From Bacilli bacterium (GTDB taxonomy: Bacteria; Bacillota_I; Bacilli_A; RF39; UBA660): a DNA stretch of 62,245 nucleotides. Shown here in pieces: positions 30,128 to 50,843 of the stretch (position 1 is the stretch's first letter; every line of letters begins with the position of its first letter). Where the stretch lies: assembly GCA_017418945.1 (NCBI GenBank), contig JAFOMI010000047.1:1-62245 (forward strand), written 5' to 3'. The notes beneath the pieces are model-generated. The model saw nothing but the letters and a program-made list of their open reading frames with translations. It made no database searches and was not told the origin of the DNA. Made by a program: the position numbers and the translations under genes.

Positions 30128-31390
30128 TTAATCTTGTTTCTTTTTCTTATTATTTACTTCTTTTATAGTACCAGACAAATCTACTGTATCTGATAATGTT
30201 TCAACCATAACTGGTTCTTCTTTATTCTTTTTCTTTTTGAAAACTTTTTCTATTATATCTTTTTTACAAACAATATATCCTAGAACAATTCCTAAAGTAA
30301 ATGTAAATAACATAGATACAGTAAATATAATCCATTCTCTTGAACTAACTTCGTCTGGACATGTTTGAACTATTTCTTTTTTCTCATCTTCTCTAGTAAC
30401 AATAATTTGATAGTTTTCTACTTTTGTTTTATCTTCACTTGTTATAACAATTTTTATAGTATTTTTTCCTACATATAATTTTTTATAACCTTGAATTTCA
30501 ACTTTTGCTTTTGCATTTACTGGAGTTGCTGTTATATCTAAAGATTTAACTTTATATGGTACAGTTAAATAATATTTCTTTTCATTTTGATCAAATTCAA
30601 TTTTTTGATTTTTAATCTTCAAACCTTTTAATAACGCATTTGCTTTAAGTAATTCTTCTTCTGTTGGAGTTAATTTTAAAGTAACTTTAACTAAATAAGT
30701 TGTTTTACTTTGACCATCTTCTGATGTAACAACTACGTTAACATCATTATCCCCTTTTTGAAGAGATTTTGCATTTTCAGAAATACTTACATTAGCATTC
30801 TTATCTGTAGGAACAGCATTTATTTTAATACTTGTAATATCTTGAATGGTTGCTGAATAATTAGTTTGAGCTGATGAAAATGAAGGAGATAAAGTAGCAT
30901 TAGGTATTTCTAAACTACTTAAAGAAGAATCAGTACCAAATGACATAACTGTAACTTGTGAACTATTACAATTGTTTTTACAATCAATTTCTTCTCCATC
31001 ACCTAATTTGAATTTTCCTTTTAATACAAGAGGAGCTTGTCCTTGATTAGCACCACCTGAAACTTTAAATGAAATGGTAGCAACATCAAAATCACTTGTA
31101 AAGTTTGGGTTTCCTTGTCCTGTTAAATTAATAACATTTCCAGATATAGAATTACCTCCACTTATATATTCTAGTTTAGTAGAATCAAATTCTAGATTTA
31201 AATTATAACTAGATATAGAATTACTAGAATCTATTCCTGTACCTTTAATACTTACATTAAATTGTGTACCTGGTTTTAAATTATCTGCTGACTTAGATAC
31301 AGAAAACTTAATAGCAGCTTTTGCATTTATTGGTAAAGCAATTACCATCAATAAAAATAACGTTATCCCCTTTAAAAATCTTTTTTTCAT
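30128..31390 (-). CDS. secreted, C-terminally anchored surface protein (cohesin-like plus two cadherin-like beta-sandwich domains)
   Basis: Signal peptide ending AKA. LEFDSTKLEY cohesin-like motif. Two repeats of LSSL..LSP.F...Y / L..G.N.I.I.VTSED..T.TY. C-terminal TM and basic tail. Confidence 0.8.
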   Translation of the reverse strand: MKKRFLKGITLFLLMVIALPINAKAAIKFSVSKSADNLKPGTQFNVSIKGTGIDSSNSISSYNLNLEFDSTKLEYISGGNSISGNVINLTGQGNPNFTSDFDVATISFKVSGGANQGQAPLVLKGKFKLGDGEEIDCKNNCNSSQVTVMSFGTDSSLSSLEIPNATLSPSFSSAQTNYSATIQDITSIKINAVPTDKNANVSISENAKSLQKGDNDVNVVVTSEDGQSKTTYLVKVTLKLTPTEEELLKANALLKGLKIKNQKIEFDQNEKKYYLTVPYKVKSLDITATPVNAKAKVEIQGYKKLYVGKNTIKIVITSEDKTKVENYQIIVTREDEKKEIVQTCPDEVSSREWIIFTVSMLFTFTLGIVLGYIVCKKDIIEKVFKKKKNKEEPVMVETLSDTVDLSGTIKEVNNKKKKQD

Positions 31391-32888: not shown

Positions 32889-32907
32889 TTATTAGGAAGT
32901 GATTATA

Positions 32908-33603
32908 ATGATTAGTATAATAACATCCTTAATAAAAAGTATGTTCTTTTTTACAGGAAGTTACTCAAATAATGCATTTAAGGAACCTTTATCAAAAGAA
33001 GAAGAAGAGAAACAAATTGAATTATTATTAAAAAAAGATAAAGATGCTAGAAATAAATTGATTGAACATAATCTTAGATTAGTATCTCATATAGTTAAAA
33101 AATATAATAATAATGAAGATAATGAAGACTTAATAAGTATTGGTATTATTGGTTTAATAAAAGGAATAGATAGTTTTACAAATGAAAAAGGAAGTAAATT
33201 AACAACATATTGTGCTAGATGCATTGAAAATGAAATATTAATGTACTTTAGAAATAATAAAAAGAATAACCTAAATATAAGTTTAGACGATCAAATTGGA
33301 TATGATAAAGATGGTAATGAAATATCATTAATAGATGTATTAAAGACAGCTAATATAGATTATGTAGAAGATATTAATTTAAAGGACAATATAGATTTAT
33401 TATTAAAAAATATAGATATACTTAGTAATAGAGAAAAAATTATTTTATATAAAAGATATGGTTTATTTAATTATGAAGAATTAACTCAAAAGGAAATAGC
33501 AAAAGAATTAAAAATATCAAGAAGTTATGTTTCTAGAATAGAAAAAAGAGCTTTAACTAAATTATTAAGAGAATTTTTAAAGAATAAAAATTTTGAAAAA
33601 TAA
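32908..33603 (+). CDS. sigK: sporulation sigma factor pro-SigK (uninterrupted, no skin element)
   Basis: Hydrophobic pro-peptide then NNAF.EPLS. LIEHNLRLV.HIVKKY, ARCIENEILM, IG.DKDGNEISLID and ISRSYVSRIEKRAL. Confidence 0.93.
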   Translation: MISIITSLIKSMFFFTGSYSNNAFKEPLSKEEEEKQIELLLKKDKDARNKLIEHNLRLVSHIVKKYNNNEDNEDLISIGIIGLIKGIDSFTNEKGSKLTTYCARCIENEILMYFRNNKKNNLNISLDDQIGYDKDGNEISLIDVLKTANIDYVEDINLKDNIDLLLKNIDILSNREKIILYKRYGLFNYEELTQKEIAKELKISRSYVSRIEKRALTKLLREFLKNKNFEK

Positions 33604-36032: not shown

Positions 36033-37868
36033 TTATTTAATTAAAACTTTACTTTTTGTTTTTATATCAGTACTGTTAACCCATCCAACATAATTTGAAA
36101 TAACTTCTCCATTTTCATCAACTACATCAAAGTTAACAGATAATTTTACATCGTCATTATATTTTTCTTTACATGCTTTTTCTAATTCGTTTAAAGATAC
36201 AGAATCAGTACATATAACATCAACAACTTCTCCTTTATATACAACTGAAATTAAACTTACTTTATAATCATAATTACCAATTTCACTTGTATTTCCATTT
36301 GGAGATTCATCAAAACTTGTATAATATAAATCAGCATTATCTAATGAAACAATATCACCAACTTTAACATCAAAAGTTTCTGGTTCTTCTTTTTTAGTAT
36401 CACTTACTTCTTCAATATCTTCTTTAGAAGATTCAGAAACCACATCAATCTTCGCAACAATTATTGGCTCTGCAACAGTATTATTTGTTTTTGTTTCTCT
36501 ATTACTTGCTTTAGTTTTATTTTCTGAATAAACACCTTTTGTTTTATTATTTTCAGTCTTATCACTCTTACTATATTCTGAAGTAATACTTGTTGTATTA
36601 CATGTTTTTTTATTAGTATTTTTTAATCCTAAACCACCAAGAGTTAATAAGGCTGCTGCTGCTACTGCAGATACAGAATATTTTAATTTTCTTAATTTTT
36701 CTTTTCTATTTAATAAAATACTATTATTTCTTTTAGCTTCTCTTTTTGCAATCTTTTCTATTTTTCTATATAAAGATCTATTTAAATTACTATCATCAAA
36801 TGAATCAAGATCATAAATAATATCAATTTGATTATTATAATAATCATCACATAAATTAGTATTATTTAATTTATCATAATTTTTTAATAATTCAACAATA
36901 TTTAAATTAATATTACATTTTTCAGAAATATTCTTATCAAGTAAATCATCACTTATTGGTTCATAGTATTTTTTTTCATTATTAACGATAACTTTATATA
37001 TACCATCAAATATCACTTTGATAGAACCATCACTATCTTTATTTATTAATTTAATATTTTTCTTTCTCTTTTTCTTTTTTAAAGTTTTAAAATAATTATC
37101 TTGACTATTACTATAATTAATATCGTTTTTAATAATATCAATTCTATCTAAAAACGCATATTTAATTCTTTTAAAAATATCTACTTCTTCTATAGTAACT
37201 TTTTTATTATTTTCTTTTTCTCTTTTAGCAACATCTTTAATAGATTTTAATAATTCTTTATTATTTATAGTATCTTTGTATTTTTCTAAATCATATATAA
37301 TTTCAATTTGATTATTTAAATATCTATCACATAAATCACTATTATTTTGTTTATCAAAATTTTTTAAAATATTAACTATATTTAAATTAGTATTTATAGT
37401 TTTATCTTTACTATTTTCTATTGCTAAAGAATCAATAAAAGGTTCAGAATAAATTTCTTCGTTATTAGAAAAAATTCTATATATACCATCAAATACTATT
37501 TTTGCATCAAAAAATTTATTTCTAACAATTTTATCTGATGTTAATACTTCTGTAACTTCTTCACCTATACTATCTTCATTATTATCTAAATCTATATCAG
37601 AAAAAGGGTCACTATCTAATTCTTTTTTTGTACTATTTATATTACTTATAATTATATTATCAAAAGGATTAGATGCTTCCTTTTTTTGTTCATTAATTAT
37701 TAATTCTAATTCTTTTTGTTCTTCAATTACTTTTCTAATTGCTTCCCTTATAACTTCAGAAGTATATTCATAATCTTCTTCAGTTTCACTTTTATTTAGC
37801 ATGATTTTCATTCTTCTTAGAATTTCTTTGCTTTGTAAGTATCTCTCCTCTAATTCTTTTTTATTCAT
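36033..37868 (-). CDS. hypothetical membrane-anchored protein with two ~100 aa internal repeats
   Basis: Two FDGIY...NLNIV..LKN.DK.NN..LCD.Y.NNQI.IIYDL units, TM AVAAAALLTLGGLGL, T/E/K-rich stalk and C-terminal GWV. Confidence 0.85.
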   Translation of the reverse strand: MNKKELEERYLQSKEILRRMKIMLNKSETEEDYEYTSEVIREAIRKVIEEQKELELIINEQKKEASNPFDNIIISNINSTKKELDSDPFSDIDLDNNEDSIGEEVTEVLTSDKIVRNKFFDAKIVFDGIYRIFSNNEEIYSEPFIDSLAIENSKDKTINTNLNIVNILKNFDKQNNSDLCDRYLNNQIEIIYDLEKYKDTINNKELLKSIKDVAKREKENNKKVTIEEVDIFKRIKYAFLDRIDIIKNDINYSNSQDNYFKTLKKKKRKKNIKLINKDSDGSIKVIFDGIYKVIVNNEKKYYEPISDDLLDKNISEKCNINLNIVELLKNYDKLNNTNLCDDYYNNQIDIIYDLDSFDDSNLNRSLYRKIEKIAKREAKRNNSILLNRKEKLRKLKYSVSAVAAAALLTLGGLGLKNTNKKTCNTTSITSEYSKSDKTENNKTKGVYSENKTKASNRETKTNNTVAEPIIVAKIDVVSESSKEDIEEVSDTKKEEPETFDVKVGDIVSLDNADLYYTSFDESPNGNTSEIGNYDYKVSLISVVYKGEVVDVICTDSVSLNELEKACKEKYNDDVKLSVNFDVVDENGEVISNYVGWVNSTDIKTKSKVLIK

Positions 37869-37973
37869 AAAAAAATTCACCCCATGCCATAAGATTATAG
37901 CACATAATTGAAAAAATGCAAATTTTGAGTGTAAAGTATATGGTTATATAATATAAAAAAATGTAAAATATGA

Positions 37974-38002
37974 AAAAAAGGTTATAAAAATAACCTCTTT
38001 TT
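37974..38002 (-). terminator. intrinsic terminator of the peptide/PCAT operon
   Basis: Minus strand AGGTTA-ttttta-TAACCT followed by a T-tract immediately after the second peptide gene. Confidence 0.7.
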
Positions 38003-38170
38003 TTAAAAATCACATAAGTTATTATTTATAAGTCTTCTAATTGATGAACCAAAATATCTACCTAAATCAGTAAATAAATCAAATCCTCTCACAAACGTAT
38101 TTAACAATGATGTTGTTATTCCACCACCTGCATAAATGCTTTTCTCTTCTATTTTTGTTAATTCCTTCAT
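38003..38170 (-). CDS. double-glycine leader peptide B (55 aa), missed by the ORF track
   Basis: MKELTKIEEKSIYAGG|GITTSLLNTFVRGFDLFTDLGRYFGSSIRRLINNNLCDF. AGGAGG SD. Confidence 0.88.
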   Translation of the reverse strand: MKELTKIEEKSIYAGGGITTSLLNTFVRGFDLFTDLGRYFGSSIRRLINNNLCDF

Positions 38171-38178
38171 ATTTCCTC

Positions 38179-38322
38179 CTATCTACATTTAAATGGTCTA
38201 GTTATACCGTCTATTACACCTATAATAAATGATATTCCTGCGGTTATGGCAGCATAAATACCTGCATTCATCATTCCACCAGCATAAATCTTTTTTATTT
38301 CATTATTTTTTAACTCAATCAT
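38179..38322 (-). CDS. double-glycine leader peptide A (47 aa), missed by the ORF track
   Basis: MIELKNNEIKKIYAGG|MMNAGIYAAITAGISFIIGVIDGITRPFKCR. AGGGGG SD, starting 8 nt after the PCAT stop. Confidence 0.88.
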   Translation of the reverse strand: MIELKNNEIKKIYAGGMMNAGIYAAITAGISFIIGVIDGITRPFKCR

Positions 38323-38330
38323 AAATCCCC

Positions 38331-40325
38331 CTATATTTCTATAACTTTATTAAATAAATCTTTATTATTTAATCTATGAGATATTAAAACTATTGTCTTT
38401 TTATACTCATTTTTTATATTTTCTAAAATTTTTCTTTCAGTTTCAACATCTATTTCATTCATTGTTTCATCAAAAACAATCATATCCGTTTCTCTTAAAA
38501 GTGCCCTTGCTATTAAGAGTTTTTGTCTTTCACCACCACTTAAATTAATACCATTTTCTTCTATTATATAATCTAAATTAATATTTTTCTTTTTTAGTAC
38601 TTTATCAAGTGTTGATACTTTTAATGCCTTCTCTATCTCTACTTTTTTAGCATTTTTATACATTAAAATATTATTCTTTAATGAATCTGTAAATATATAT
38701 TCTTTTTGAGATATAAGACATATATTATTCTTTATACTTGATTCCTTAACCTCATTAATATTTATATTATTAATAAGTATTTTCCCCGAATTATTAACAA
38801 TGTCTTTATTAAGTATTTTAAATATTGTAGATTTTCCTTTTCCACTCTCTCCAAATAATAAGATATAATCTCCTCTATTTATATCAATATTAAATTTAGA
38901 TAGAATTTTATTATTATTACATGTATATGACACATCAATAAATTCAATATTATCTATACTCTTAATACTTTTATTCCCATCACAAGAATCTTTAATATTA
39001 AGTAAATTATTTATTCTTTTATATGAGAGAAAAGAATTATTGTATGCTTTATATAGTGATATTATATTTTTTAAAGAATTAAAATAAGTCAAAAATAAAG
39101 TATAAACCATTGTTAATTCTCCCAATGTCAATTTATTGTTATTAATAAGATAGATACTTGTAAATATTAGAATTATAATGCCATAGTTTTCTAACAATTT
39201 AGAAAATAAGTTTTCTAAGGAAAGTGCGAATGAATAATTATTGTATGAATTAATGCAGCTTGCTTTGTTTTCTTTTTGATTATCAATTATTTTATTATCT
39301 AGATTAAGATTTTTAATAGTATCTATTCCTATTAAATTTTCAACAAATTTTGAATTAAGATTTACCTCCTTTTCTTTATATTGAGTGAATAAATTTATTT
39401 CTTCTTTCTTTAAATATAAAACAAGACAAATATAAATAGTAGATATAAATATAAGAATAATAAATAATTTAAAATCTATAAATAATATAATCACAAGTAT
39501 AAAAAATAAAAATATAATATCAAGTATCGACGATGTTGTTAAAATAAATAAAAAATTCTTAATAATAATTAAATCATTAATCTTAGAAGTAGTATCACCT
39601 ATTGGTCTTAAATGATGATATTTTTGTGGAAGAGAATATATTTTTTCATAGACTCTACTACTTAATGAATAATCTATACTATTATTTAATTTAATAGAAT
39701 GATTATATTTTATAAAATCTATCAATTCTTTTACTAATAATAATATAAAGAATGTTAAATAATTATGGTTAGTTTTTTTATCAAATAAACCTTTAACAAG
39801 TATTGAAAAAGATATACCTAAGATACATGAAATAAATGACAAAACCATTAATACTATTATTTTATTTTTATTTTCTTTTATAATATTAATTAAATAATTA
39901 TGGTAATAGTTTTTTTCTTTAATGACATTCCCCTTTTTATCAAATGTAATTATAATATTTTGCCATTCTTTCTTAAATTCTTCACGAGAATAATAAAGTC
40001 TTCCTCTAATTGGATCAAAAATAGATATATATTCATTTTCTACTTTATCTATAATAACAAAATGATTTATATTATTAATCTTAATAAGTGCGATTAACGG
40101 AAAGTTTAATCCATATAAATCACTTATCTTACATTTAAAAGCCTTTGATGAAAAACCTATTTTATTTGAAACATTAATCAAATTATAAATTGAAGTTCCA
40201 TTCTCATTAGTATTTGTAAGTGTTCTTAATTTTTCTATATCTATATTTCCTTTATAATATCTTACAATATTATATAAGCAACAAATACCACAATCAACTA
40301 AACCTTCTTGTCTAACATATCTCAT
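38331..40325 (-). CDS. peptidase-containing ABC transporter (C39 peptidase + TMD + NBD)
   Basis: Q...DCG (catalytic Cys), HFV (His), FDP (Asp), about 6 TM, GESGKGKST, LSGGERQ, FDE and SHR. Confidence 0.94.
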   Translation of the reverse strand: MRYVRQEGLVDCGICCLYNIVRYYKGNIDIEKLRTLTNTNENGTSIYNLINVSNKIGFSSKAFKCKISDLYGLNFPLIALIKINNINHFVIIDKVENEYISIFDPIRGRLYYSREEFKKEWQNIIITFDKKGNVIKEKNYYHNYLINIIKENKNKIIVLMVLSFISCILGISFSILVKGLFDKKTNHNYLTFFILLLVKELIDFIKYNHSIKLNNSIDYSLSSRVYEKIYSLPQKYHHLRPIGDTTSKINDLIIIKNFLFILTTSSILDIIFLFFILVIILFIDFKLFIILIFISTIYICLVLYLKKEEINLFTQYKEKEVNLNSKFVENLIGIDTIKNLNLDNKIIDNQKENKASCINSYNNYSFALSLENLFSKLLENYGIIILIFTSIYLINNNKLTLGELTMVYTLFLTYFNSLKNIISLYKAYNNSFLSYKRINNLLNIKDSCDGNKSIKSIDNIEFIDVSYTCNNNKILSKFNIDINRGDYILLFGESGKGKSTIFKILNKDIVNNSGKILINNININEVKESSIKNNICLISQKEYIFTDSLKNNILMYKNAKKVEIEKALKVSTLDKVLKKKNINLDYIIEENGINLSGGERQKLLIARALLRETDMIVFDETMNEIDVETERKILENIKNEYKKTIVLISHRLNNKDLFNKVIEI

Positions 40326-40360
40326 TTTTTCTCCTCCAATGATAATATTAACTACAAAAT

Positions 40361-40391
40361 AAAAAGAATCCCTTAATTTAAGGATTCTTTT
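40361..40391. terminator. intrinsic terminator
   Basis: AAAAGAATCC-cttaatttaa-GGATTCTTTT inverted repeat. Confidence 0.75.
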
Positions 40392-41290
40392 TAATATAAT
40401 TTCACACTATCTAATATTTCTTCTAATTCATTACTATATTGTTCATAGTTATTCTTAATAATTACTTCAACAGTATATATTAAATAATTAGGTTTACTTT
40501 TAAAAGTTATTATAGATATTTTATAAACACACAATGAAGACTCAGCAGTTTTACCAGCATATTCTATTGTAGTAATTGTTTTATCATCTTTATCTATTAC
40601 TTTCTTATCATTTAATAATTCAAATTTTTCTTTTCCTTCTTTAATATCACTTATACCTTTTTTAATATAATCATCAGCACTCTTTTGTTCATATTTTTCT
40701 ATATCATAAGTAAATGCAGTAAATATTATATTTTTTGATTTATTAATAACATATAGGTCATATTCACCAACTTCTTTTTTCTTATATCCATGTCTAAAAG
40801 TAAATGATGCTAATTCATCTTTAGTTCTATATTCATTTCTTTCTTCTTCAATCATTTTTTCTTTCAATCTAATTTCAGTTATACTTTTTGAATAAGTACT
40901 ATATCCAAATAAGAATATAATTATAAAAAATAGCACCGGAATTAAGAATAAAGAATAATTAAACATTATTCTATCTTCTCTATTAATATATTTAATAACA
41001 TAATAAGGAATTGCAAATATACTAAATATAGTAAGTAAAATAATCCATATTATTTTTTTCTTAATAGAAAAGCTTTCATCTTTAATAACCAATTTAACAA
41101 AATATATTACTTCAATAAATAGCAAAATTATTAAAAGTATAAATAATAATATATAAAATATAGTTCCAGAGCTCAATAATAAACTTTCAATTTTCTTAAC
41201 TTCTAATAATATTTTTATTATTGGAAATATAGATAAAAATAAAAATATCATTAATGGAGGAACTATATATATTGTTTTGCTTTTTTTCAT
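40391..41290 (-). CDS. membrane protein (about 4 N-terminal TM plus soluble C-terminal domain)
   Basis: Hydrophobic N-half with a PLDc_N-like K.IWIILL....IF.IP.Y segment. AGGTGA SD. Confidence 0.8.
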   Translation of the reverse strand: MKKSKTIYIVPPLMIFLFLSIFPIIKILLEVKKIESLLLSSGTIFYILLFILLIILLFIEVIYFVKLVIKDESFSIKKKIIWIILLTIFSIFAIPYYVIKYINREDRIMFNYSLFLIPVLFFIIIFLFGYSTYSKSITEIRLKEKMIEEERNEYRTKDELASFTFRHGYKKKEVGEYDLYVINKSKNIIFTAFTYDIEKYEQKSADDYIKKGISDIKEGKEKFELLNDKKVIDKDDKTITTIEYAGKTAESSLCVYKISIITFKSKPNYLIYTVEVIIKNNYEQYSNELEEILDSVKLY

Positions 41291-43319: not shown

Positions 43320-44213
43320 TTAAAATTCTTTATTATTTACATAAAAATGTACGTTACTAACTTCAATACTATCTTCTAAAGAATAAGAAATACTATAAAT
43401 TACCTCTTCTAAAATTTTATTATCATCTTTTGAATTTAATATACAATTATTAAAATATAGATTAATTTCTCCATCTTCTAATGTATAACTCATAAGTTTA
43501 GTATCATAATTCAAATAACTAATTAAATTAGTTTCATAAGAACTTTTACTTGATAATTCATCTATAATAATATTTACTTTATCATCTTTTGAATTAATAT
43601 ATTTAGTTACTGGAATATAATATGGTGTCCCATTACTATTAGAATTATAATATAAAGTTATTTTAGTAACATCTTTTAAAGAATCTATATCTAATATTTT
43701 ATTAATTCCAATATCTCTTGTATATTCCTTATCAAAGAACTCGTTATATTCATTTTCTACTAATATATTAACATATTTAATATTTGAAATACTAGTAAGA
43801 GTATAAGTAATACATTCAATCATCCTTTCTTTATTAACAGTTTCTTTTAATATTTGATTTGAAAATGAAACTTCTATATGATTATTATTAATTTTTATAC
43901 TATTTATAGTAGTTTTTTCTGGAATTATAGCTTTAAAAGATTCAGGTATCTTATTTTTATTTACTCCATTAATAATTAAAGAATCTAATAAGTCTTTAGC
44001 CAGCTTTTCTTTTTCAATTGATTTAACTGATATTTTTGTTTTAGCAACATAACCATTTTTATCTAATAAAAATATATCATGATAATTTGTAGTAATTGTT
44101 TCTATAGTATTTAATTTATATGTTTTTTTTGATGGAAATAAATAAAGTAAGAATAAAACAAATAATAACATTGTCATTTTTAAAATTCTATTCATAGAAG
44201 ATTTTTTTATCAT
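43320..44213 (-). CDS. gerM: GerM-like protein (two GerMN domains)
   Basis: IFLLDKNGYV, I.YTLT, YYIPVTKY motifs. Adjacent to gerE. Putative sigmaE promoter TCATTTT..CATATATT at 44232-44260. Confidence 0.82.
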   Translation of the reverse strand: MIKKSSMNRILKMTMLLFVLFLLYLFPSKKTYKLNTIETITTNYHDIFLLDKNGYVAKTKISVKSIEKEKLAKDLLDSLIINGVNKNKIPESFKAIIPEKTTINSIKINNNHIEVSFSNQILKETVNKERMIECITYTLTSISNIKYVNILVENEYNEFFDKEYTRDIGINKILDIDSLKDVTKITLYYNSNSNGTPYYIPVTKYINSKDDKVNIIIDELSSKSSYETNLISYLNYDTKLMSYTLEDGEINLYFNNCILNSKDDNKILEEVIYSISYSLEDSIEVSNVHFYVNNKEF

Positions 44214-44265
44214 AAGTTTATCACCTAGTAAAATATATGAAATCATAAATAAAAAAATGAGAAAT

Positions 44266-44472
44266 CTAAATAGATATCTCATTTAATTTAAGTAATTCAA
44301 CAACAGCACTACTTCTACCTTTTACTCCAAGTTTTTGCATAACATTTGATATATGATTTCTAACTGTTTTTTCACTAATTTTTAATTCTTCTGCAATTTC
44401 TTTAGTGGAATTATTTAGTATTAATAGTTCAAATACTTCTCTTTCTCTTTTTGTTAAAATTCCTTTTCCCAT
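44266..44472 (-). CDS. gerE: spore transcription factor GerE (LuxR HTH)
   Basis: LTKREREVFELL...TKEIA.EL.ISEKTVRNHISN.MQKLGVKGRS.AVVELL, nearly the B. subtilis GerE sequence. Confidence 0.93.
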   Translation of the reverse strand: MGKGILTKREREVFELLILNNSTKEIAEELKISEKTVRNHISNVMQKLGVKGRSSAVVELLKLNEISI

Positions 44473-44516: not shown

Positions 44517-44542
44517 ATTATATGAAAAAAAAGAAAAAAAGT
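44517..44542 (-). promoter_or_regulatory. putative sigmaK promoter of gerE
   Basis: AC-16 nt-CATATAAT on the minus strand. Confidence 0.5.
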
Positions 44543-45033
44543 TATTCTTTTTCTTTTTCAAATTTAACAGTTATATACATCTTTTTATCAAAACATTTTT
44601 GAGTAAATTCCATTATTTCACTTGCAAGTTTAACACTATGATCATTCTTAATAAGAATTACTCTAACTTGATCATCTGTTATTTTAATAAAATTATCTAA
44701 TTTATATTTGTTTTTTATTTTTAAAGAAATTTCTTCTTCCTGCCCTTTTAATACGTTTAATAATTTTAATTCTTCATATGCATTATTCTTTTCTTCTTTT
44801 GTAGATTCTTCTTTAATTATAATCTCTTGTAATTCTTTTTCTTTTTTATTTTTTTCTTCTTCGTTTTCTGTTTTAAGTGTTGCGATTATACTATTATCAG
44901 TTACCTCACTAACATCTACTTTAGCCTTCTCTTTTGAAACTTCTATTTCAGATGGTAAAGTAATATAATAAACACTTAAAACTAAAATTAAACTAAATAA
45001 ACTTAATGCCCATATACTTTGTTTCTTTATCAT
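44542..45033 (-). CDS. spoIIIAH: SpoIIIAH-like protein
   Basis: MIKKQ..W.L.LFSLILVLSVYYI N-terminus, coiled coil ..EEKN.AYE.., short ring-building domain. Downstream of efp. Confidence 0.85.
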   Translation of the reverse strand: MIKKQSIWALSLFSLILVLSVYYITLPSEIEVSKEKAKVDVSEVTDNSIIATLKTENEEEKNKKEKELQEIIIKEESTKEEKNNAYEELKLLNVLKGQEEEISLKIKNKYKLDNFIKITDDQVRVILIKNDHSVKLASEIMEFTQKCFDKKMYITVKFEKEKE

Positions 45034-45100
45034 AATTTCCTCCACATCTAATTAATACTATTTATTTTTTCAAAAATTATGACAAAAAAAAGAAAGTAAA

Positions 45101-50297: not shown

Positions 50298-50843
50298 TTA
50301 TTTTAAAGCTTCAATTAATTCAGCTTTTTTCATTGAAGTATATCCTTCAATCTTTTTGCTTTTAGCTAATTCTTTTAATTCAGCTACTGTTTTTGAAGAT
50401 AAATCTTCTTTCTTAGTTGCAGTTTCTTTTTTAGGTGCTTCTTTTTTTTCTGCTGTTTTTGTAGCTTTAGCTTCAGCTGGCATTTTTCCTTCTAAAGCAT
50501 CTTTAGCTAATTTAACTAAGTTTGCAAAAGCAGTTTTATCTTCAATAGCCATTTCACTAAGCATTTTTCTATTAATGATAACTCCAGCTTTATTTAATCC
50601 ATCAATGAACTTAGAATAACTAATATTGTTTACTCTACATTCAGCATTAATTCTTGTAATCCATAATTTTCTAAAATCTCTCTTCTTTTGTCTTCTGTCT
50701 CTAAAAGCATATTGACCAGAATGCATTAATTGTTCTTTTGCAGTTTTATATAATCTATGTTTACTTCCAAAATATCCTTTTGCTCTTTTTAATATTTTTT
50801 TATGTCTTTGTTTAGTAACACTACCTGTTTTAACTCTTGCCAT
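50298..50843 (-). CDS. rplT: 50S ribosomal protein L20 with C-terminal Rho_N-like extension
   Basis: [30 protein letters not shown], then an A/K/E/T linker and [15 protein letters not shown]...[14 protein letters not shown]. Confidence 0.96.

Follow-up and report, generated by a model that had tools for sequence, protein, structure and literature searches.

What are two small peptides for when their genes lie behind a transporter that would both cut and export them: are they a weapon, a signal, a part of the producing cell, or only chance open reading frames (ORFs)? This question is raised by positions 38,003-40,325, minus strand, of the window, by which we mean the whole stretch of 62,245 nucleotides (nt) analyzed here (contig JAFOMI010000047.1, assembly GCA_017418945.1), from a Bacilli bacterium of the GTDB lineage RF39; UBA660. 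The unit comprises the gene of a peptidase-containing ATP-binding cassette transporter (PCAT) and, directly behind it, the genes for the precursors of two peptides, which we call A and B. Genome comparison shows this PCAT-A-B unit to belong, in single copy, to the core genes of a whole family of uncultured gut Bacilli. The features of the operon and its immediate flanks described below are all on the minus strand.

The PCAT gene (38331-40325) is an ORF of 664 amino acids (aa) with Peptidase_C39, ABC_membrane, and ABC_tran domains, all three above their Pfam cut-offs (E values of 1.4e-34, 7.6e-20, and 1.2e-23, respectively). It is followed after 8 nt by the ORF of the peptide A precursor (47 aa; 38179-38322) and, after a further 8 nt, by that of the peptide B precursor (55 aa; 38003-38170). 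Each small ORF has its own Shine-Dalgarno sequence, as read from the sequence: GGGGGA for A (38326-38331), overlapping the PCAT stop codon, and AGGAGG for B (38175-38180), overlapping the A stop codon. The operon ends at an intrinsic terminator (37969-38002), for which folding gives a 13-bp stem plus a U-run (-11.9 kcal/mol, z -5.66; none of 200 shuffled sequences folded equally well), and which a consensus scanner missed because the stem has few G-C pairs. The preliminary description of this DNA had reported two Shine-Dalgarno-led tandem ORFs behind a dedicated PCAT and a closing terminator, and all of these are found at the coordinates just given; the peptide sequences and Cys positions that it quoted match exactly.

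The translated PCAT holds a DCG Cys and the motifs GESGKGKST, LSGGERQ, and IVFDE, read by eye, which we take to be the catalytic-type Cys, Walker A, the signature, and Walker B, respectively. In its architecture of C39, six transmembrane (TM) segments, and ABC part, with catalytic-type and ATPase motifs intact, it resembles PCAT1, ComA, LagD, and LahT; unlike known PCATs, it scores far below the curated cut-offs of both TIGR01193 (bacteriocin_ABC; 263.8 bits, cut-off 523.85) and its best NCBIfam match, NF045998 (Mbov_0121 family; 314.8 bits, cut-off 500). The window's own genome (868 kb, 24% G+C, 85% complete) contains one C39 domain, that of the PCAT, and among its 8,573 stop-to-stop ORFs of at least 30 aa only A and B carry a double-glycine leader. 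From the domain content and the leader match, we infer that the PCAT cuts the leaders of A and B and exports both peptides.

Conservation was followed in three samples. In the first one (60 relatives), the PCAT-A-B order was found in 13/13 genomes of the same genus besides the window's own (14 with it), across the family, and in one genome each of two neighboring families; scripted extraction from 39 genomes recovered A in 39 and B in 38, the genome without B being G031. In the second sample, of 400 class-wide genomes, B was present in 49/49 genomes of the family and in the sole genome of family f7. Full-length B was not found in the other Bacilli families sampled, where matches extended over the leader length only (10/24 genomes of family f12, 1/3 of f17, and 2/21 of f22). 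A third, phylum-level draw, which overlaps the second, gave B in 16/16 family genomes, and outside the family 4/384 genomes matched, all of them in f12 and over no more than the leader length. In the 45 family loci newly added here, B is present in all cases and A in 44 (in G088 the contig stops just before B), with the PCAT upstream wherever the contig permits. Altogether, each of the two peptides was recovered from 83 of the 84 genomes examined, which belong to more than 50 genera and measure 0.7-1.6 Mb; where found, the frames stay open, with ribosome sites, in the same order and with the same motifs. The small ORFs are thus conserved in relatives, and the earlier suggestion that the system is lineage-wide holds.

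The public protein sets contain, at E <= 0.001, 298 clusters of B type and 121 of A type, nearly all without a name or named "hypothetical protein [Bacilli bacterium]," and none with a precomputed Pfam domain. A related-locus search with the genus-level B alignment returned 15 loci, and one with the PCAT protein as query returned no relative. The titles of the metagenome-assembled genomes at genus level name sheep, cattle, buffalo, rabbit, and human gut as sources, and the DNA runs that contain the locus are metagenomes from ruminant or animal guts; no RNA run was among the sequencing runs listed for the locus.

The rate of change was compared with that of RecD2, a housekeeping neighbor that lies within a few kb of the locus throughout the genus. 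Identity to the window within the genus is 61-73% for RecD2, 45-62% for B, 43-65% for A, and 44-55% for the PCAT, and in the rest of the family 42-50%, 31-48%, 28-51%, and 27-37%, respectively, where the genus range of the PCAT leaves out the variants with a deleted ATPase that are described below (29-30%), the broken copy of G008 (42%, partial), and the contig-cut copy of G009 (37%, 218 residues). By these ranges, A and B therefore change about as slowly as the helicase, whereas the PCAT that would export them changes faster. The genomes nearest to the window by RecD2, G006 and G001, are likewise nearest for PCAT, A, and B, and a chromosomal, vertically inherited locus is the best reading of the comparison. 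The unit as cargo of a mobile element was ruled out by the lack of mobility genes nearby and by the vertical gene order beside RecD2 in the genus. Alignment of four DNA runs to the locus gave four strain differences only, too few for a selection test; they include variants at 38092 and 38206 in two gut metagenome runs, namely GTG to ATG in codon 27 of B (V27M) and GGT to GGC in codon 39 of A, a synonymous change at the third base of an invariant Gly codon.

Peptide A consists of a double-glycine-type leader, a hydrophobic helix rich in Gly, Ala, and Ser, and the end G-V-I-D-G-x-x-R-P-x-K-C-R. Peptide B has a leader of the same type, followed by an amphipathic cationic peptide with D-L-G-R-x-x-G-S-S-I-R-R and, at its end, C-D-F. 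The sole invariant columns of the A alignment are G35 and G39, and those of the B alignment G37 and G41, in each case the two glycines of a GxxxG motif (G-V-I-D-G and G-R-x-x-G), so that the description of two tandem double-glycine peptides bearing GxxxG stands. The C-terminal halves are best conserved (mean pairwise identity of 46-50%, versus 35-40% for the leaders and 28-34% for the N-terminal halves), and A and B resemble each other over 33 columns only (hhalign 97%), which cover the leader and the start of the mature peptide. Genome G062 (L162) has an extra ORF with a double-glycine leader upstream of A.

Outside the window's genus the leaders are textbook double-glycine leaders (E-L-x-x-I-x-G-G), and within it they read K-x-[MI]-Y-[AG]-G-G. 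The family alignments show E at -8, L or I at -7, I at -4, and Gly-Gly, the window's A having Ala at -2, and the TIGR01847 bacteriocin signal model is matched by 9/37 B and 6/37 A orthologues. The canonical double-glycine register has L at -12, E at -8, and a hydrophobic residue at -4. Since the Gly-Gly columns fall on A14-G15 of the window's A, the alignment and this register together predict a cut of A after Y-A-G. The preliminary description had both leaders end in IYAGG: the leader type holds for both peptides, whereas the predicted cut of A lies one residue earlier. In the window's genus as a whole, the cut is probably placed after Y-A/G-G (MYGG|N in B of G011 and MYAG|A in A of G013), with B ambiguous by one residue.

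A near-C-terminal Cys is present in at least 90% of the aligned rows, C46 in A and C53 in B, at 7 and 12 residues, respectively, from the second Gly of the GxxxG motif. It is kept in 80/83 A and 82/83 B peptides. Genome G016 has no Cys in either peptide; G031, which is missing B, has none in A; and in G004 a gene of 1046 aa (L095:3570-7462) stands between an A cut short without its Cys and an intact B. Genome G301 (L164) contains two A/B pairs, the second one decaying and devoid of either terminal Cys. This clustering of losses is suggestive of a coupling between the Cys of A and that of B, the events being three or four only. The disulfide-linked heterodimer proposed earlier would be compatible with the co-conserved Cys residues; a complex prediction for mature A plus mature B scored 0.03, against a mark of 0.32, and was not used as evidence either way.

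The closest known systems are the class IIb bacteriocins. TIGR03949, the model of the lactobin A/cerein 7B family of class IIb bacteriocins, is matched at E <= 1 by 21/37 A orthologues, and its curated cut-off of 21.5 bits is passed by three of the eight scanned singly (L014, 30.5 bits; L016, 32.8 bits; L024, 25.5 bits); the window's A gave no match to it at E <= 1. The lactococcin G-beta model is matched, below cut-off, by 18/37 A orthologues and Pfam Bacteriocin_IIc by 17/37, and the A orthologue of G042 is already named a class IIb bacteriocin by NCBI. Orthologues of B have fewer family matches, mostly at leader level, and both of those seen in detail cover the leader only. In a language-model search with B only unnamed clusters scored at least 0.9; a PDB sequence search with both peptide profiles gave only leader-level matches above E 0.08, and the alignments to CtA, the substrate of PCAT1, likewise stay at leader level (E 0.089 for B and 0.44 for A). 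The claims of novelty made beforehand are borne out in that B belongs to no described family, the window's A stays below every curated cut-off, and no close match to a characterized bacteriocin was found. Topical text searches of the literature found no paper on this PCAT-A-B system.

With lactococcin G, enterocin 1071, and plantaricins EF and JK, the unit shares tandem small genes in one operon, a dedicated PCAT, double-glycine leaders, cationic mature peptides of about 30-40 residues, and a GxxxG motif in each. Unlike them, it has one conserved near-C-terminal Cys per peptide and no recognizable immunity gene after A and B, and it is a single-copy core trait of a whole family. Known class IIb examples are accessory loci at the level of strains or species. 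Taken together, the profile matches place the A/B system as a distant branch of the class IIb kind, outside the characterized families.

The relatives carry additional components that the window lacks. In 41 of 84 related loci, a gene of 115-160 aa, translationally coupled to the PCAT by overlap with its stop codon, stands between PCAT and A (e.g., L014:3560-4012, L016:1014-1466, and L103:2429-2914); the count comes from 42 script matches, one of them a false positive that was removed. The model of its product (pLDDT 90) consists of a TM helix and a beta-barrel, and its best structural matches are membrane-fusion proteins (VIA-align: BesA, Z 9.9; Spr0693, Z 9.1; MacA, Z 8.7; Foldseek: HlyD in the HlyB/D complex, E 0.005). 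Thus, it resembles accessory proteins of the HlyD/LcnD/ComB type, but it has only about 115-160 aa, no coiled-coil hairpin and, at E <= 0.01, no Pfam match. Neither the window nor any of the 14 genus genomes, own included, has the gene, and the statement that the system has no accessory protein is therefore right for this genus and wrong for the 41 loci. The ancestral operon probably comprised exporter, mini adaptor, A, and B, the adaptor having been lost in the window's genus.

The absence of an immunity gene, also stated in the preliminary description, cannot be asserted, in view of two candidates. Directly upstream of the PCAT lies a gene (40391-41290) for a multi-TM protein of 299 aa that occurs in 13/13 genus genomes and that this query did not find in any of 27 others. 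In 12 of the 13 it adjoins the PCAT directly on the upstream side; in G008, whose PCAT is broken, it lies about 30 kb away. The protein has no NCBIfam match and no Pfam match at E <= 0.01, and its look-alikes, which we regard as a lead only, are unnamed clusters (0.90-0.95) and clusters of DUF4190/PsbP type (0.84-0.85); it is a candidate immunity or accessory protein by association only. The other candidate is an anchored paralogue of B, found directly after B in 6/84 genomes (L016:536-709, L014:4332-4496, L101:1966-2115, L129:1036-1209, L122:1049-1210, and L123:351-503). It has 50-58 aa, a basic N-terminus, and one TM helix, and its C-terminal half shows homology to B (hhalign 96.7%), sharing the GxxxG, the terminal Cys, and their spacing. 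It is plausible that this paralogue serves as an immunity decoy or as an anchored partner.

The exporter itself also varies. In G002 (L096:445-2142), G005 (L097), and G012 (L098), it is a C39 plus TM protein of 565 aa in which the Walker A region is deleted and the signature and Walker B are degenerate, the Pfam scan and pairwise alignment having been done on G002 only; G009 (partial, L100) has a contig-cut copy of the same type. These four genus relatives depart from known PCATs in the internally deleted ATPase part, and beside the exporters of this one subclade A and B are intact and have their Cys. A broken PCAT is accompanied by early decay of the peptides in two genomes, the A leader of G008 reading G-E and the A of G037 having no start codon.

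The surroundings are those of a housekeeping region. In about 14 kb on each side, Pfam identified a glycyl/prolyl-type tRNA synthetase, TrmK, RpoD, DnaG, PrsW, SigK, RecD2, and an SPFH protein, as well as GerM, GerE, a SpoIIIAH-like protein, EF-P, LDH, a PBP, L20, IF3, FtsZ, and FtsA. No modifying enzyme, kinase or regulator, or mobility gene was found in this range, as had been noted before, and a modified peptide (RiPP) was ruled out for want of a modifying enzyme nearby. The sporulation-type genes SigK (32899-33603; 298 bits, above the NF004471 cut-off), GerM (43320-44282), GerE (44266-44472), and SpoIIIAH-like (44542-45045) are kept in a genome of about 1 Mb and 24% G+C, and the reduced lineage seems to retain sporulation genes.

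Several other genes attracted our attention. Downstream of B, 36033-37880 encodes a 615-aa protein of no family, with a C-terminal TM segment and two long internal repeats that each hold ...VIFDGIY...NLNIV..LKN.DK.NN..LCD.Y.NNQI.IIYDL...; shorter relatives follow B in other genus members. The ribosomal protein L20 encoded at 50298-50843 has a C-terminal extension that matches Rho_N (residues 147-180, E 4.9e-10). The 420-aa product of 30128-31390 has a Cohesin domain and two beta-sandwich domains of the Cadherin-like type, which one would not expect of a genome this small. Elsewhere, in the Mycoplasma-type genome G047 (code 4), an ORF of 130 aa (L174:4039-4431) has a perfect double-glycine leader (...ELKDIKGG) and adjoins rplU- and rpmA-like ORFs, named by eye; the stretch listed contains no PCAT. 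Of the 24 genomes of that family, 10 have matches of this kind that are confined to the leader.

The spacer 5' of the PCAT (40326-40393) contains the terminator of the upstream gene, a GGGATT box, and the PCAT Shine-Dalgarno sequence GGAGGAG. About 47 nt separate the box from the PCAT start codon; it is part of the descending arm of the terminator hairpin, where it also lies in the rest of the window's genus. In 38 of 74 loci, an RGGAWWW box is found 44-57 nt (about 48) before the PCAT start, versus 5.0 expected, the maximum being 13 in 300 shuffles and 300 random-window sets. SigH promoters are given in one report as AGGA, 17-18 nt, and GAAT (PMC12456013). This strict motif is present in only 2-4 of 74 loci, and the window's own promoter candidate, GGGA-N18-TAAT, matches it weakly. 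A SigH-like sigma gene of the own genome scores 124.6 bits, below its cut-off; the ORFs downstream of it, named by eye, are presumably secE-, nusG-, and rplK-like, and its placement was compared with the gene order of B. subtilis. Control of the operon of the SigH type may be taken as a lead, not as a finding.

Which function fits these observations best? We lean, with somewhat better than even confidence, toward a class IIb-type two-peptide bacteriocin turned into a fixed family trait. The operon, with its observed ORFs, ribosome sites, and terminator, would yield precursors of A and B with double-glycine-type leaders of about 15-16 residues; the C39 domain of the single PCAT would remove the leaders and its ABC part would export the peptides, as domain content and leaders suggest. 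Mature A would be a transmembrane-like helix with a basic RPxKC tail and mature B a cationic amphipathic helix-Gly-helix; by analogy with lactococcin G and the plantaricins, the two would pair 1:1 in the membrane via their GxxxG motifs. Their near-C-terminal Cys residues would couple, most simply as an interchain disulfide, and the complex would permeabilize a target membrane, most likely that of competing bacteria. Several points weigh against such a bacteriocin. Neither A nor B of the window reaches any Pfam or NCBIfam model. In typical class IIb operons an immunity gene stands behind the peptides, and none is recognizable after B in the window by ORFs or Pfam. The PCATs with a deleted ATPase beside intact A and B are hard to square with simple ATP-driven export. 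A search of the own genome, at 85% completeness, gave no disulfide oxidoreductase of either the Thioredoxin_4 (DsbA-type) or the VKOR family, and the recorded habitat, the ruminant gut, is strongly reducing, so that a stable extracellular disulfide is uncertain. Finally, bacteriocin loci are normally accessory, patchy, and fast-evolving, and universal, single-copy conservation at a housekeeping rate over more than 50 genera would be atypical for them.

Some of these same points would suit a role directed at the producer itself, in which the two peptides would build a small complex in the membrane, active, for example, in the transition state or sporulation, with the PCAT as a developmental exporter or inserter. 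We consider this unlikely, although it deserves to be taken seriously. The core-gene behavior, with presence throughout the sampled family and a rate close to that of RecD2, the lack of a recognizable immunity gene, the RGGAWWW box with its likeness to a SigH -35, the presence of a SigH-like sigma gene, and the ATPase-dead PCAT kept together with intact peptides all agree with it. So does the location in a region of housekeeping and sporulation genes. Judged by their size and by the likeness of their N-termini to the Pfam-confirmed genes of the window, the ORFs next upstream of the PCAT in G028, G018, and G029 are GerM-like, and in G024 SpoIIIAH-like and GerM-like ORFs are beside the PCAT. HetC of Nostoc provides a precedent for a PCAT with a part in development (PMC10986499). 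On the other hand, the peptides carry every sequence hallmark of class IIb and some orthologues pass TIGR03949, the strict SigH spacing with a GAAT -10 is confined to a few loci, the sporulation-gene neighborhood may be retained ancestral order, and control by a SigH-type promoter would be just as fitting for a bacteriocin made in stationary phase. That A and B are a lineage-defining, Cys-coupled membrane complex of the producer and not a weapon, turned on in the transition state or during sporulation and delivered by a PCAT that works without its ATPase in one subclade, is a tentative proposal of the same doubtful standing.

A cell-to-cell signal, which the preliminary description had suggested as a possibility in place of a toxin, appears improbable. 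A and/or B would then be a pheromone like ComC or BlpC, with the receptor encoded elsewhere in the genome. The leader type and export by a PCAT are shared with these pheromones, and PCATs do export double-glycine pheromones too (PMC7595303). Among the genes of the own genome, five response regulators and a few kinases would be conceivable sensors of a peptide, and the BlpC cluster is the nearest among the named clusters in the language-model search of B (0.82, a lead only). However, the own genome, at its 85% completeness, yielded no LytTR regulator, there is no kinase or regulator within about 14 kb, and A is a hydrophobic, transmembrane-like helix of 20-plus residues. Moreover, unlike ComC and BlpC, the peptides are hydrophobic, paired, and conserved across genera without a split into pherotypes, and two co-conserved peptides with GxxxG and matched Cys residues point to a complex and not to a ligand; the signal in place of a toxin thus finds no support. 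The last alternative, that A and B are chance open frames in AT-rich DNA behind an orphan PCAT, would draw on the 24% G+C of the genome, in which short spurious ORFs are common, and on the lack of family matches of the window's peptides. It is refuted by the conservation data, and we give it practically no credence: both ORFs are open in nearly every genome at 28-65% protein identity to the window, hundreds of public clusters match them, and the strain variant in the Gly39 codon of A is synonymous. Hence, A and B are real genes, since frames and ribosome sites are conserved in 83/84 genomes each.

The kind of system is known; what is new is its family-wide core status, the paired terminal Cys residues, the mini membrane-fusion partner, and the anchored paralogue derived from B. 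That partner and that paralogue of the relatives, together with the PCAT with a deleted ATPase, offer natural contrasts for studies of the PCAT mechanism. Above all, a two-peptide double-glycine system belongs to the core gene set of a whole uncultured family with genomes of about 1 Mb, a size at which only what is needed is thought to be retained. If A and B are a toxin, as we favor, they would be a weapon fixed over deep time, possibly without a dedicated immunity gene, and they would make the guts of ruminants and other animals a source of new membrane-active peptides that come in pairs and carry Cys. If they are not a toxin, a bacteriocin scaffold would have been co-opted for a cellular function, and, in the case of a producer complex, the class IIb architecture would have been domesticated as a core component in gut Bacilli with reduced genomes.

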